Sequence record: NC_135731.1
Strand: one strand, 5' to 3'
From: a phage
Length of the DNA stretch: 64,000 nt
Shown: in pieces, positions 1,431 through 5,909 of the stretch
Position numbering within the stretch: the first letter of the stretch is position 1
Layout of the letters: the number at the start of each line of letters is the position of its first letter
Notes under the pieces: model-generated
What the model was told of the DNA's origin: nothing
The model's input: the letters and a program-made list of their open reading frames with translations, nothing else
Database searches by the model: none
Translations under genes and position numbers: made by a program

Positions 1431-3509
1431 TTAAAAAGGTGTTTCATCGTCTTCAAAACCGGGAACAGGGTCAGAGGACGGATCATCATACGGAAGGTCT
1501 TCTTGTGTGTCAACAGGGTTAACAGTAGGAGTTACAACCTTATCAGCCACAACCCTACCTACAGGTGTTTCTACAACTGCGTGCTCTTGATCCTCAAACA
1601 TAGCTTGAGGTCTCCAAACAACCTCCCCACCTTCTCCGTCTGTGAACATCTGCATTTCTTTGTCCCAGTACCAGTTGCTGGCATCATGGAACTTACCTGT
1701 GTGGGGATCCATAACTAAGGTATCCGCAATGCCTAACGTTTTTGCTGGGCGGTTTTTAAGACCTACCAGTCGGACACGTCCACGGGAACGATCCACCATC
1801 TCTTCTGCCTCCACCCCAACAACTACCCAGCTAAGTTGCTCCAATCCGGCACTACCCCGAAGGTTCTCTTTTCGTACAGGATACCAGAAAGGTAACGGAT
1901 TCCCATCCTTGTCCTTTGGAGGCACAATCTCTGTGCGTTTCAGGTGAGCGATCACCAAGATAAATACATTAAACTGCTTACAGAACGCGGCTAGTTGGGT
2001 CATAGCCATGTCCAGCTCTTTTCGCTCATCCTTAACATTAAGCCCTGAAATTACCATGGACAGGTGATCCAGCACAATATAACGGCAGTGATACAGACAC
2101 ACCATTTGTTTAAGCTTAGTGATCAACTCATCTACAGGAATAGACCCAAAATGCTTGAACACTTTGATTTTTCCCTCCTTGGCCCAAGATTGGTGAATCT
2201 CAGCATGCTCCTGATCAGTCAGGAACTGACTAGGGTCTTCAACAAACTCTTTAACATCAAACCCCAACTGGTTGGCGTATAGAGAGTTAATTGCTTCCTC
2301 AGGGTCCTCTTCAAGGTGAATCAGACACAGGCGATCATCCTCTTCATAATCATCGGCTTTAGGGCATGTAGGATCCATCAAGTATTTTGCAATGCAGTGT
2401 TCTAGTTTCTTGGCTACAGTTGTTTTACCACCGCCAGATGGGCCTGTCAGCATCATCAAGGTGCCTTTGTGAAGTCCTTTCAGCATCTTCTGCAATTTAG
2501 GGAACTCCGCGCTGATATCTACGCCATTAGAAGTCTTCTTACGAAGAGATTCAATGGAGAAGTCTTCTAAATCAGATACAGCATCAGGCACATATTTGAC
2601 TGGGTGACGGAACATGTTGACAATATCTTCCAGCTTTTTAGCCTTCAGCATGTCACGGATATCTTTTACACCGTCAGGGTCGTTTACCTCACTGGGGTAT
2701 TCCACGTGGTAAACGTTATCAGCCATCAAAAATGCCGCGATATTATGTGTGGCTTCAACACCTTTGATAACGTGTTTTTGCTTCTCTACCTCGTTAGCTG
2801 CATCGTTGTCCATTGCAAGGACCACTGTTCCGTAGCTACGGATAAATTTCTCATTGTTTGCAAAAGTATCTACTGCGTTTGCACATCCACAGTTAATTCC
2901 AACAAAAGGCAGGCAGGGTTTTCCTGCCAGATCACTCCCGTTGATAACTGCATCGATCCCGTCCTGGACCTCTTTAGCCCACTGTTTCACCTTTGCCGGG
3001 GCTTTAGCGTTGGTGAGAATCCCTTTTACTTGTATCTGATATGCAGCCTGCCATGCTGCAATAACATCGCCTTCTCCCTCACAAACGTTAATCTGCTTAC
3101 GGTTGTTAGAAGATGCACACAGCTTTTGCCCAAACATTTGGGAGTTAGCCTTTACGATCCCAACCGTCGTAAAGTGCCCACGTTGCTCTTTGGGGATCGT
3201 CCAGTCACGCTTTTTGAAACCGGACAGATTCCCGTAGCGGTCGTAATATGGGAAATATGTTGCAGTAACTGTCACACCGTCTTCTTGGGACAATGCTGAT
3301 CGCACACCAAAATATTGTGCAGCCATTAGACCGATATTTTGTTGTGGTACAGGGACAATTTTAGTATTTTCTAAAACAGTCTCTACAGTTTCAACTTCTT
3401 TTTCATCACGATAGTCTCGTTTCACACTTCCCCCACTTTTATACTTAGTTGCTTTCGGGTTTGGCTCACCGAAACGGTTATATGCAGATGCCATAAATTT
3501 ACTTCCCAT
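1431..3509 (-). CDS. DNA primase/helicase (TOPRIM + DnaB/SF4-like helicase, T7 gp4-like)
   Basis: TOPRIM motifs VCEGEGD and LAMDNDAAN in N-terminal half; Walker A GPSGGGKTT and DnaB-like C-terminal half; lies immediately upstream of the polymerase as in T7 gene 4 then gene 5. No CxxC zinc-ribbon pairs seen at the N-terminus. Confidence 0.8.
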   Translation of the reverse strand: MGSKFMASAYNRFGEPNPKATKYKSGGSVKRDYRDEKEVETVETVLENTKIVPVPQQNIGLMAAQYFGVRSALSQEDGVTVTATYFPYYDRYGNLSGFKKRDWTIPKEQRGHFTTVGIVKANSQMFGQKLCASSNNRKQINVCEGEGDVIAAWQAAYQIQVKGILTNAKAPAKVKQWAKEVQDGIDAVINGSDLAGKPCLPFVGINCGCANAVDTFANNEKFIRSYGTVVLAMDNDAANEVEKQKHVIKGVEATHNIAAFLMADNVYHVEYPSEVNDPDGVKDIRDMLKAKKLEDIVNMFRHPVKYVPDAVSDLEDFSIESLRKKTSNGVDISAEFPKLQKMLKGLHKGTLMMLTGPSGGGKTTVAKKLEHCIAKYLMDPTCPKADDYEEDDRLCLIHLEEDPEEAINSLYANQLGFDVKEFVEDPSQFLTDQEHAEIHQSWAKEGKIKVFKHFGSIPVDELITKLKQMVCLYHCRYIVLDHLSMVISGLNVKDERKELDMAMTQLAAFCKQFNVFILVIAHLKRTEIVPPKDKDGNPLPFWYPVRKENLRGSAGLEQLSWVVVGVEAEEMVDRSRGRVRLVGLKNRPAKTLGIADTLVMDPHTGKFHDASNWYWDKEMQMFTDGEGGEVVWRPQAMFEDQEHAVVETPVGRVVADKVVTPTVNPVDTQEDLPYDDPSSDPVPGFEDDETPF

Positions 3510-4263
3510 TAATTCTGCTCCTTACTACAGGCTCGTTTGCTAAGAATACGGCTTTTGCCCAGCCACGGGGTGTGAGGCTTCGAATCATCTTCGTCCTTGC
3601 ACTTTTTCCACCTAGCTTAGCGTGTTGCATGGAATACCCGCTAACCGCGTCAACTATTTGCGGGACAGGTTTTGTGGCCGGGATTATAAATCCATTACCT
3701 ATCCAGCCGCAAGTTATTTTTGGATAGGCATCGCGTGGAGCTATAAATTCAGGAAACCAGGGGTTTACATCATTCTCCGGTAAATACCCGCCATAGTCAG
3801 AAGGATGAAAACGGTAATCAGGTTTGCGCCACAGTGTGGACATAACACCTACGGGATTCTCTACATGCCATGGGCAATCGTAAATCTCTCCTAGCTCTTC
3901 CGCAACCCGAGCATCCTTTACAGCATTAATTTGGATCAAAGGATCCTTAGCCAGCTTTTTCTTAAAATGTGCAGCACCTGATACTGCTAAATGCGTGCAC
4001 GGAGGAAATGCAAGAATAAAGTCTGGAGCTGGATACATGCAAAAAGTTTCCTGAGGGAACCATGGGTCAATCCAATAATCCACATAGTGAATGTTAGGAT
4101 GATCGGTTATCACCTCTGCATAACTGCCGTGGTCAGCACCTTCTGCATTAAAGCACAGGCACAGGTACCCAGCTTTTGCCCAGTCAATAACTGCACCACC
4201 AGACCCGTCAAATAGACTCCACACAACACCTTTGTGGTAGTGTTCTTTGTAGATGAATTTCAA
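3499..4263 (-). CDS. C5-cytosine methyltransferase-like protein (minimal; motifs I, IV, VI recognisable)
   Basis: SLFDGSGG (motif I-like), FPPCTHLAVSGA (PC motif IV-like, catalytic Cys), HVENPVG (ENV motif VI-like). Track start at 4293 is a GTG inside a terminator hairpin; TTG at 4261-4263 with AGGAG RBS 8 nt upstream is the likelier start. Too short for a canonical MTase with target-recognition domain, so function is uncertain. Confidence 0.4.
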   Translation of the reverse strand: MKFIYKEHYHKGVVWSLFDGSGGAVIDWAKAGYLCLCFNAEGADHGSYAEVITDHPNIHYVDYWIDPWFPQETFCMYPAPDFILAFPPCTHLAVSGAAHFKKKLAKDPLIQINAVKDARVAEELGEIYDCPWHVENPVGVMSTLWRKPDYRFHPSDYGGYLPENDVNPWFPEFIAPRDAYPKITCGWIGNGFIIPATKPVPQIVDAVSGYSMQHAKLGGKSARTKMIRSLTPRGWAKAVFLANEPVVRSRINGK

Positions 4264-4281
4264 TTTGCTGTCTCCTAATGC

Positions 4282-4308
4282 AAAAAGCCCCACCCTTTCG
4301 GGCAGGGC
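4282..4308 (-). terminator. rho-independent terminator after the 4315-4797 gene
   Basis: Imperfect GC-rich hairpin spanning 4287-4308 (GCCCTGCCC-GAAA-GGGTGGGGC on the minus strand) followed by TTTTTG. Confidence 0.5.
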
Positions 4309-4314
4309 CTAGTG

Positions 4315-4797
4315 TTAAACCCGGATACCTATTGTATACTCGGTGGATACCAATGTCAAATCTAAATTTAAAATTTCTTGCATCTCATAATATGCGTCCA
4401 GGGTTAGATACATTTCCCCATCCTTTTCTACATACTTGTCCAAGTGCTTGAGGCATTTCGGATAACTATCAAGTGCAGCTTTCAGGCACTCAAACTCTGT
4501 GCTGTTGATGAATCCTTCCATCTTGGCTACCCGTTCTGGGGTAATGATAGCACTGTAGTGAGATTTAGCTTCCTGAATGCAATGGGTCCAAGCATCAACT
4601 TTCTCTTCGAAAAGTCCGAAGAATTTCTTTTTGGTGAGCTTCAGATTCTTTAAGTGCTTAAGCACTCGGTTGCCGATCACAGCCACATCACGAAACTTAA
4701 GGATCACTTTGTCGATATCTTCGCGACCTATTTTCACAAAACAGGCCTTACACATTTCAGGGGAGGAATAACCAACTTTCCACATAAAATCTGACAT
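4315..4797 (-). CDS. hypothetical protein (160 aa)
   Basis: Long ORF co-directional with neighbours, tightly packed; no recognisable motif. Confidence 0.6.
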   Translation of the reverse strand: MSDFMWKVGYSSPEMCKACFVKIGREDIDKVILKFRDVAVIGNRVLKHLKNLKLTKKKFFGLFEEKVDAWTHCIQEAKSHYSAIITPERVAKMEGFINSTEFECLKAALDSYPKCLKHLDKYVEKDGEMYLTLDAYYEMQEILNLDLTLVSTEYTIGIRV

Positions 4798-4809
4798 ACC
4801 ACCTTCTCC

Positions 4810-5205
4810 TTATTCCTGAAAAGCAACGATATCATATGAACTTGCAGACGATCCTAGTGAAGAATGACTCCAATCTAGGTTATCAGAGTAGTCAGCGTAC
4901 TGTGCACCACTACGTAGTTTATATTTTACCCACTTACCTGGTGCAGGGTTTTCACCACCTTCCCATACTACCCAGTCTTCTGGCAGGCCGTCCTGAGGGT
5001 AGTCATCCACCTCACTAATAATCTTAGGGTTTGGCACCAAGAACCATGCAGGCTCTTCCTTCCGGGTAAGTGTCCACACAGCGTAGGTATCTGAGCAGGC
5101 GCATGATAGCAAAGTATATCCACTATTCAGAACTTTTGCAAGCTCTTTTTCAGCATCTCCTAATTTGGTTAAGTGGTATTGGATAATCTTCACACCTGTA
5201 ATCAT
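4810..5205 (-). CDS. hypothetical protein (131 aa)
   Basis: Co-directional ORF, stop adjacent to next start; no recognisable motif. Confidence 0.6.
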   Translation of the reverse strand: MITGVKIIQYHLTKLGDAEKELAKVLNSGYTLLSCACSDTYAVWTLTRKEEPAWFLVPNPKIISEVDDYPQDGLPEDWVVWEGGENPAPGKWVKYKLRSGAQYADYSDNLDWSHSSLGSSASSYDIVAFQE

Positions 5206-5507
5206 CAGAAACCTCCAACTTCTTCAGCAAATGCAGCTGCTGTCGTCGCTGCATCCAGATAGGACTCTAGTTCACGGGCTGCACGTTTGTAAATTGAGTG
5301 GCGCATATCGTTTGGCAGTTGGTGGAAGTCCACCTCTTCACCGTTGTGGTAAACACGCACATCGGTAATTTGTCTAAATCCGTAATAGTCAACATCAGAG
5401 TCACGGCACTCCGAGTCTGGCAACTGGACAACTGCTTGAGCTTCCACAGTAAACATATCGTCAAGTTCGAAATCGATTTCAAAAGTGTATGGTTTATAAC
5501 GTTTCAT
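5205..5507 (-). CDS. hypothetical protein (100 aa)
   Basis: Co-directional ORF; chosen over the overlapping 5267-5482 alternative-frame ORF because it fills the intergenic space and reads protein-like. Confidence 0.55.
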   Translation of the reverse strand: MKRYKPYTFEIDFELDDMFTVEAQAVVQLPDSECRDSDVDYYGFRQITDVRVYHNGEEVDFHQLPNDMRHSIYKRAARELESYLDAATTAAAFAEEVGGF

Positions 5508-5567
5508 CGTTTAGTGCTTCCTTAGTTTTTGTGGGGAGGAGTGCCTCCCCTTTAGACTAACATCTTA

Positions 5568-5909
5568 CTACTGAAGGTCTTCAGAGTCAAGCTCAAAAAG
5601 AATCAAACTGTGCATGCCTGCAGAGAGATCAACGCACCCTGCAATAATAAGGGTCTGATAGTAAGGTTCAGCACCCTCAATGTCTTCGTTAAAATCTACA
5701 ACAAGATAGTCACCTTTGTTAAAGGTGTATTTGTCCGATGTAAACGCAAAACCTGCCCAGTCCCCTACTGCAGGATCTTTATCAGTCACCTTTGTTAGCA
5801 GCAGGTCTTTTTCACGAGATCTTTTAGTAAAATCGTGAATAACAACATCCTTCTCTTCAGGAGTTGGATTGCCACACACGTAGTTAACTATATTTCTCCA
5901 CAAACTCAT
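5568..5909 (-). CDS. hypothetical protein (113 aa)
   Basis: Co-directional ORF whose stop overlaps the helicase start region. Confidence 0.55.
   Translation of the reverse strand: MSLWRNIVNYVCGNPTPEEKDVVIHDFTKRSREKDLLLTKVTDKDPAVGDWAGFAFTSDKYTFNKGDYLVVDFNEDIEGAEPYYQTLIIAGCVDLSAGMHSLILFELDSEDLQ

Follow-up and report, generated by a model that had tools for sequence, protein, structure and literature searches.

A short cytosine methyltransferase of phage K42, which is related to the BASEL phage KarlJaspers (Bas06) at 95.4% identity, has been characterized in connection with the retron Ec86 (bioRxiv 10.1101/2023.08.16.553469). Every K42 mutant that escaped Ec86 had a disrupted 711-bp ‘dcm’ gene, and such a Dcm is encoded by 34 of the 35 Ec86-sensitive phages. 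From a model of the protein against DNMT3A, catalysis was assigned to C82 and substrate binding to E128, K175 and K176. Wild-type K42 Dcm raised the level of 5-methylcytosine (5mC) on the multicopy single-stranded DNA (msDNA) of the retron, as judged by liquid chromatography coupled to mass spectrometry (LC-MS) matched to a 5mC standard, and activated Ec86, while the C82A/E128A/K175A/K176A protein did neither. Plasmid-borne expression of K42 Dcm alone sufficed for both effects, and mutation of either C of the CCTGG in the msDNA stem–loop led to loss of defence (bioRxiv 10.1101/2023.08.16.553469). According to PMC12640716, the study has since appeared in a journal (Wang et al., Cell Rep 2024;43:114857). 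Here we analyse a relative of this gene at positions 3499–4263, on the minus strand, of a 64,000-nucleotide (64-kb) stretch of phage DNA (record NC_135731.1; the whole stretch is referred to as the window). We conclude that it very probably encodes a stand-alone (orphan) S-adenosylmethionine (AdoMet)-dependent DNA cytosine-5 methyltransferase, belonging to a minimal, phage-specific subfamily.

The window derives from a Vequintavirus (rV5-like coliphage). In a megablast search of phage genomes, positions 3000–5000 were 100% identical to Escherichia phage phiWec196 and matched 115 further phage records at 90–99% nucleotide identity. The methyltransferase retains at least 90% amino acid identity in all 116 Vequintavirus-like records that carry the gene, which belongs to the conserved core of the genus. 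The original prediction had described a 254-residue product with an FDGSGG motif, a PC motif and an HVENPVG motif; the open reading frame (ORF) and all three motifs were found, on the minus strand. The coding sequence and the parts of its product are as follows.

3499..4263, minus strand: coding sequence of the putative short C5-cytosine DNA methyltransferase; 254 aa, TTG start at 4263, TAA stop at 3501–3499; ortholog of rV5 gp226.
4195..4215, minus strand: motif I, LFDGSGG (residues 17–23), the AdoMet-binding loop; aligned to M.HhaI F18-G-x-G by hhalign, and within PF00145 positions 4–94 as matched in relatives.
3976..4008, minus strand: motif IV, FPPCTHLAVSG (residues 86–96), with the predicted catalytic nucleophile Cys89; aligned to HhaI P80-C81 and equivalent to C82 of K42 Dcm.
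3850..3864, minus strand: motif VI, VENPV (residues 134–138), with Glu135; aligned to HhaI E119-N120 and equivalent to E128 of K42 Dcm.
3586..3831, minus strand: family-specific conserved segment (residues 145–226) in place of motif VIII and a variable target-recognition domain (TRD); D178-x-Y180-x-K182-x-T184 and W187.
3547..3585, minus strand: C-terminal motif IRSLTPRGWAKAV (residues 227–239), the start of the terminal helix; R228 in 220 of 226 family sequences, P232 in 217 of 226 and G234 in 220 of 226.

The fold of the product is that of a C5-cytosine methyltransferase. An AlphaFold2 model built from a 32-sequence alignment was of high confidence (mean predicted local distance difference test score 90.4, predicted template-modelling score 0.89), and its structure matches were Dnmt-type C5-cytosine methyltransferases only. 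DNMT3 was the best of these: Foldseek placed DNMT3A and DNMT3B on top, with E about 2e-6 and a template-modelling (TM) score of about 0.5, and Dnmt2 ranked below the DNA enzymes. When viral models were searched, the top matches were members of the same family named ‘site-specific DNA-cytosine methylase’. A comparison of predicted structure with C5-methyltransferase folds, one of the checks proposed along with the original prediction, came out in its favour.

The N-terminal half could be placed in register with a classical enzyme. A profile of the family (226 sequences) aligned by hhalign with a HhaI-family profile at a probability of 83.5% and E 8e-6, the latter profile being narrow, with homologs of M.HhaI all at least 71% identical; the M.HhaI sequence was checked against PDB 10mh. 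In this alignment F18 pairs with F18 (motif I), N39 with N39 (motif II), P88-C89 with P80-C81 (motif IV) and E135-N136 with E119-N120 (motif VI). The motif IV string quoted in the original prediction, FPPCTHLAVSGA, is present in the ORF. Cys occupies position 89 in 221 of the 226 family sequences and Glu position 135 in 225 of them. PF00145 is weakly matched by 20 of 32 close relatives (best E 1.3e-6), and some relatives exceed the Pfam gathering threshold, over profile positions 4–94 (motifs I–IV) only.

The register extends to the characterized enzyme. KarlJaspers (MZ501090) encodes, as bas06_0055, a 711-bp ‘Dcm-like C5 cytosine methyltransferase’, whose product shares 53% identity with the window protein across 235 residues (E 8e-86). 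At the positions of C89, E135, K182 and Ile183 of the window protein, the 236-residue Warwickvirus version has C82, E128, K175 and K176, so that three of the four residues replaced in the K42 quadruple mutant are conserved. The fold, the M.HhaI register and a 53%-identical homolog that forms 5mC on DNA in vivo together bear out the suggestion of a compact C5-cytosine-methyltransferase-like enzyme, and the family as such is an experimentally supported DNA 5mC methyltransferase family.

The window protein is a typical member of a large family. Its residues 2–251 matched PHROG 757 (‘DNA methyltransferase’) with E 8e-87. A search of 5.8 billion proteins returned 3,386 homolog clusters at E ≤ 1e-3, nearly all of 225–260 aa, and an exhaustive profile search of 1.84 billion 50%-identity representatives returned 2,074 with E ≤ 1e-3, of which 944 reached E ≤ 1e-10, mostly of 200–260 aa. 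Homology on this scale is well outside what a chance ORF would show. Family lengths centre on 210–260 aa with no extra domain, a range that includes the 254 residues of the window protein. By tblastn, 1,503 of 50,697 phage records contain a family gene, the main hosts of the carriers being Escherichia (576), Klebsiella (521) and Salmonella (107); carriers include Drexlerviridae, Kagunavirus, Krischvirus (Phi1, RB49) and phi92-like phages. In the 226-sequence alignment, the positions conserved in at least 95% of members are G32, P87, C89, G96, K103, A114, E135, N136, P137 and P154, and further D178, Y180, K182, T184, W187, P195, R228, P232 and G234. The window protein keeps every one of them; because these residues are intact, the gene is real and under selection, and no relic. 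Degeneration, raised in the original prediction, is accordingly rejected for a core gene of the genus with all family-invariant residues in place.

In distant members of the family the module is part of longer proteins. One of 563 aa (P0266) combines it with a D12-class Dam adenine methyltransferase (PF02086, E 2.5e-48); it is fused in another of 348 aa (P0262) to an HNH endonuclease, and in an uncultured phage (BFVD A0A6J5SE15_1) it lies inside a 1,397-aa protein with helicase domains. The fusions to a Dam methyltransferase and an HNH endonuclease indicate that the substrate is DNA. The gene neighbourhoods vary: in a lambdoid prophage the gene lies in the nin region next to Dam, NinG and RusA; in a T1-like phage by a DUF3987 primase-like gene; in Krischvirus among small early genes near alt; in Drexlerviridae with helicase genes nearby; and in Vequintavirus by the primase–helicase gene. 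Since these five lineages have unrelated neighbours and no conserved partner, the enzyme would act alone. In three other distant members (P0247, P0232 and P0190) the catalytic Cys is gone: where FPPCTD would stand they have APPGRD, SPPSRD or FPEYMD. The ENP motif of two of the three has lost its Glu as well. These proteins may be derivatives without activity that have taken on another role.

The C-terminal half sets the family apart. The window protein contains no QxRxR motif VIII, the Arg of which contacts cytosine O2, and has the conserved strand D178-x-Y180-x-K182-x-T184 instead. Nor does it contain a variable TRD; the ∼40 residues between the strand at 184–189 and the C-terminal motif are conserved family-wide. 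The view that the product is too short for a conventional, TRD-bearing DNA methyltransferase thus agrees with what is missing from it. K182 corresponds to K175 of K42 Dcm, one of the named substrate-binding residues. Since the recognition region is uniformly conserved, members of the family probably share one short target. Where separate motifs IX (RxLTxRE) and X (GN[AS]V) would stand there is a single motif, IRSLTPRG[FW]AxAV, the assignment of which is ambiguous: it appears to echo motif IX (RRLTPRE) by sequence and the motif X helix by position, and the AlphaFold2 model has a terminal helix at 233–251. Motif IX of E. coli Dcm reads RRLTPRECARLM, and the BLASTP match of that protein to the window protein is not significant (E 1.2). 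By eye, K182 and T184 may be paired with R790 and R792 of DNMT3A, and R228-S229 either with the G-N of motif X or with the RRLTPRE of motif IX; Arg228-Ser229 also seems to resemble G890-R891-S892 of DNMT3A. A search of HhaI, HaeIII and CmoX with the family hidden Markov model aligned motifs I–IV only, and hhalign gave no meaningful alignment to DNMT3A 777–912 (E 0.097; sequence verified before comparison) and E 0.18 against E. coli Dcm. A sequence search of the PDB with either the window protein or a 32-sequence profile as query returned nothing significant.

A mechanism may be proposed along the lines of standard C5-methyltransferase chemistry. Cys89 of the Pro-Cys motif would attack C6 of a flipped-out cytosine while Glu135 of the ENP motif protonates N3; AdoMet, held by the FDGSG loop, N39/E41 and D66, would donate its methyl group to C5, and beta-elimination would free the enzyme. 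The short conserved segment at ∼145–226, with K182, would take the place of the large variable TRD and of QxRxR, in an architecture closest to that of the DNMT3 catalytic domain. The gene lies in the replication module, behind a sigma-70 promoter, perhaps in translational coupling with the primase–helicase. Given this placement and the promoter, the substrates of the enzyme would be phage DNA during its replication and host DNA, for example retron msDNA. Whereas the reading frame, its family membership, its fold and its motif register were shown for the window protein, the target sequence and the benefit to the phage are what we infer.

A number of observations weigh against this assignment. 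Pfam and NCBIfam scans of the window protein gave no methyltransferase match, with PF00145 absent even at E ≤ 10. Residues ∼145–254 could not be aligned significantly by sequence with HhaI, HaeIII, CmoX, DNMT3A 777–912 or E. coli Dcm, so that this half has no aligned counterpart of HhaI R165, which stabilizes cytosine O2, or of N304, which completes the AdoMet pocket. Residue 183 is Ile in the window protein and Lys in 153 of the 226 family members, as at K176 of K42. Between E. coli Dcm (MG1655, 472 aa) and the window protein there is no orthology, by the same BLASTP and hhalign scores as above. The 5mC evidence comes from the K42 homolog only, from which we infer the activity of the window protein, and the CCWGG specificity of K42 Dcm was taken over from E. 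coli Dcm, being assumed and not mapped (bioRxiv 10.1101/2023.08.16.553469). In dcm+ MG1655, moreover, Ec86 was not self-activated and msDNA 5mC was low without the phage enzyme (bioRxiv 10.1101/2023.08.16.553469), which is awkward if host and phage enzymes make the same mark; the phage enzyme may not simply duplicate the mark of host Dcm. DNA of the Krischvirus TB34 contained no modified nucleoside by high-performance liquid chromatography/mass spectrometry (HPLC/MS) (PMC13390438). Finally, the Vequintavirinae were ‘exceptionally susceptible’ to the restriction–modification (RM) systems tested in BASEL (PMC8594841). With this high RM sensitivity no benefit in restriction evasion, the role suggested in the original prediction, is visible, and the sole demonstrated consequence of a family member is the opposite of protection, namely betrayal of the phage to retron Ec86.

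The TB34 result bears on the extent of methylation. TB34 (OX001802, 1501–2217) encodes an intact family homolog, and its DNA is unmodified by HPLC/MS, which makes bulk or non-specific cytosine methylation unlikely. With CCWGG as target, the site proposed for the 53%-identical relative, methylation would be sparse: 172 cytosines in the window, 0.6% of all cytosines, and methylation at this level (∼0.6%) could have escaped the TB34 assay. The window contains 86 CCWGG sites, where shuffling that preserves dinucleotides predicts 118.6 ± 8.5 (z about −3.8); CCWGG is thus moderately avoided although the phage encodes a putative CCWGG-type methyltransferase, and this modest depletion does not decide specificity. 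The TB34 study contains a separate puzzle. The phage SAP (OZ034687) is 99.96% identical to TB34, yet its DNA has glucosylated hydroxymethylcytosines, unlike the unmodified DNA of TB34, a difference that its authors leave unexplained; neither phage is known to have a gene for a hydroxymethylcytosine synthase or a glucosyltransferase (PMC13390438). The family genes of TB34 and SAP are both 97.3% identical in nucleotide sequence to that of Phi1.

Of the alternatives, the one that we take most seriously, while regarding it as doubtful, is that the protein is an active C5 DNA methyltransferase directed not at the inner C of CCWGG but at another cytosine, a shorter motif or a structure-dependent site such as hairpin or replicating DNA, in which case the label ‘Dcm-like’ would mislead. 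The assumed origin of the K42 specificity, the fact that neither E. coli Dcm nor its TRD is similar in sequence, the quiet state of Ec86 in dcm+ MG1655 with its low msDNA 5mC, and the loss of defence upon mutation of either C of CCTGG are all consistent with such a target, as is a recognition segment that is tiny and DNMT3-like. CCWGG depletion in the window can be read the same way, a self-protecting phage being under less pressure to avoid its site. Against this, the CCTGG site of the msDNA is needed for the response, host Dcm may simply not reach filament-bound msDNA, and the family is concentrated in enterobacterial phages. CCWGG is the target of host Dcm and of EcoRII in enterobacteria. 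A very short, frequent motif (CG, GC or CC) is also hard to reconcile with TB34 DNA in which no modified base was detectable. A more specific version, in which the minimal family has a non-Dcm specificity conferred by a conserved, DNMT3-like element of ∼80 residues and directed at another CCWGG cytosine, a shorter motif, or hairpin or replicating DNA, is somewhat more speculative still. If true, it would explain why Ec86 is triggered by the phage enzyme but not in a dcm+ host, and the family would represent a new, very small solution to recognition among C5 methyltransferases.

The remaining alternatives depart further from a self-sufficient DNA methyltransferase and are far less probable. That the gene is degenerate or catalytically dead, or that its product acts on RNA (as Dnmt2 does) or on free nucleotides, is very unlikely. 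The window sequence has no Pfam or NCBIfam match, a recognition region conserved family-wide would also fit a single conserved RNA substrate, and TB34 DNA had no detected modified base; but all residues conserved in at least 95% of members are intact, amino acid identity is at least 90% in 116 related records, the homolog acts on DNA, fusions join the module to a DNA adenine methyltransferase and an HNH nuclease, and Dnmt2 scores below the DNA enzymes. Where the original prediction spoke of a DNA or nucleotide-modifying enzyme, the 5mC-forming homolog upholds the former and nothing supports action on free nucleotides. A split methyltransferase of the M.AquI or M.EcoHK31I type, needing a separate recognition subunit, has hardly any probability left. 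It is suggested by the 254-residue length, the lack of a recognizable TRD or motif IX, features that resemble the M.AquI alpha subunit, and the small ORFs of unknown function that flank the gene. The neighbours are wholly different, however, in Vequintavirus, Krischvirus, Drexlerviridae and lambdoid prophages, K42 Dcm is active when expressed alone, and the model is a complete compact domain including the C-terminal helix; we reject a split enzyme on the unconserved neighbourhoods and the lone-acting homolog. Just as improbable is a CmoX-like carboxymethyltransferase, which would use carboxy-S-adenosylmethionine from host CmoA to make 5-carboxymethylcytosine and not 5mC. The defining features of CmoX are a motif IV of the PPC type and a motif X Arg, the family has an invariant PPC and Arg228, and the E. 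coli host encodes CmoA. PPC is not diagnostic, however, being found also in motif IV of M.HaeIII (GGPPCQ). Arg228 would lie one residue before the slot of CmoX R350 and HhaI N304, which by position would fall to Ser229 in the window protein, and DNMT3A likewise has Arg-Ser there (G890-R891-S892). DNMT3A uses AdoMet. CmoX genes usually adjoin cmoA, but no CmoA homolog was found in any Escherichia or Klebsiella phage record and no CmoY-type ligase was seen among the neighbours of the window gene; and the product of the K42 homolog was 5mC by LC-MS with a standard. On cofactor genes, motifs and product together we reject an identity with CmoX.

An AdoMet-dependent DNA cytosine-5 methyltransferase therefore remains the preferred reading, and we next describe the setting of its gene. 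The flanking signals are as follows.

4271..4276, minus strand: ribosome-binding site AGGAGA, 7 nt 5′ of the TTG start.
4280..4310, minus strand: intrinsic-terminator-like hairpin with U-tract, between the upstream 160-aa ORF and the methyltransferase gene.
4331..4359, minus strand: near-consensus sigma-70 promoter TTGACA-17-TACAAT (11/12), within the 3′ end of the upstream ORF; equivalent to rV5 promoter P231.
3499..3509, minus strand: 11-nt overlap between the end of the methyltransferase coding sequence and the ATG of the primase–helicase gene; rV5 shows the identical overlap.

The curated rV5 record has the identical 765-nt coding sequence. The ORF listing also offers a GTG start at 4293, giving 264 aa, but this is unlikely to be the true start because it lies inside the hairpin. 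The hairpin (4310–4285) has an 11-bp stem with seven G-C pairs, a GAAA loop and a centroid fold of −20.3 kcal/mol, and is followed by UUUUU. Two statements of the original prediction about this locus were accurate: the gene directly follows a terminator, the hairpin and UUUUU at 4310–4280 being immediately upstream, and it overlaps the primase–helicase start, sharing 11 nt with the ATG of the ORF at 1431–3509. That ORF encodes 692 aa and matches PHROG 239 at E 3e-159; translational coupling between the two genes is possible. On the minus strand the order is promoter (4359–4331), ∼20 nt, the strong terminator-like hairpin, and then the ribosome-binding site and start of the methyltransferase gene. 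A transcript begun at this promoter would run into the terminator within its own 5′ leader, an arrangement that looks attenuator-like or like a 5′ stabilizer.

Other genes and records touch on methylation in these phages. A minus-strand ORF at 5205–5507 encodes 100 aa matching PHROG 4240 (function unknown), with a weak secondary match (E 2e-4) to the C-terminal part of the PHROG 1573 ‘DNA methyltransferase’ profile. In rV5 (NC_011041, 5025–6350), a 441-aa ‘methyltransferase’, gp230, which resembles an adenine-specific DNA methylase at the N-terminus of the latter, lies between homologs of this ORF and of the window ORF at 5568–5909. It is absent from the window (5507–5568), and the methyltransferase complement therefore differs among Vequintaviruses. 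No vsr-like gene was seen among the neighbours of the window gene. The family gene is also carried by 39 ‘Campylobacter phage’ records (host Campylobacter jejuni; for example MG065690, MG065644 and MG065677). In 16 of the 39 the 2-kb region matches the window at megablast level (∼96% identity in two listed), and the host labels of these records look doubtful.

Close relatives already carry an annotation for the gene, and with a characterized member in the family the assignment is not novel. Labels of orthologs vary, from ‘hypothetical protein’ in phiWec196 and the original rV5 entry and ‘DNA methyltransferase’ in RefSeq rV5 to ‘DNA cytosine methyltransferase’, ‘putative site specific DNA methylase’, ‘Dcm’ and ‘Dcm-like C5 cytosine methyltransferase’; in the literature on rV5, the Vequintavirinae and methylation we found annotation-level statements only. 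The ‘hypothetical protein’ of phiWec196 merits the name DNA (cytosine-5) methyltransferase, short phage type, as in rV5 and the BASEL phages. The family is among the commonest methyltransferase genes of enterobacterial phages and among the smallest C5 DNA methyltransferases, reading DNA without the classical recognition domain. One practical consequence is that rV5-like therapeutic phages carrying the gene may be sensed by retron Ec86/Eco1.

Five known systems may be compared with the window protein. CmoX of Synechococcus phage S-B43 (PDB 8YF3) is a full-length PF00145 protein of 372 aa (E 6e-53) with a TRD (PMC12783734). It has an SPPC motif, Arg350, and cmoA and an amide ligase adjacent, whereas the window protein has FPPC, probably Ser229 at the N304 slot, and none of that context. 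Classical type II C5 methyltransferases (PF00145; M.HhaI, M.HaeIII, E. coli Dcm) share with it the Rossmann-type core and motifs I, II, IV and VI, and presumably their chemistry; the window protein is 70–220 residues shorter and lacks QxRxR, separate motifs IX and X, and a variable TRD. The catalytic domains of mammalian DNMT3A and DNMT3B are the closest in architecture, at 13–15% identity and a TM of about 0.5, with a C-terminal half that gives no significant sequence alignment; where DNMT3 has R790-x-R792 in motif VIII, the window family has, by eye, K182-x-T184. DNMT3 is a DNMT3L-assisted oligomer that acts on CpG. The Dcm of K42 and KarlJaspers is alike in family, architecture, length (236 versus 254 aa), C-terminal IRSLTPRG and DNMT3A-closest fold. 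The window protein differs from it by a 9-residue N-terminal extension and Ile183 for Lys, and the phages and settings differ: a Vequintavirus myovirus with a primase–helicase overlap as against Drexlerviridae siphoviruses. The fifth is rV5 gp226 (YP_002003728), an ortholog alike in its 765-nt coding sequence, promoter P231 and 11-nt primase–helicase overlap; between it, with the identically placed genes of other Vequintaviruses, and the window gene there is no material difference.

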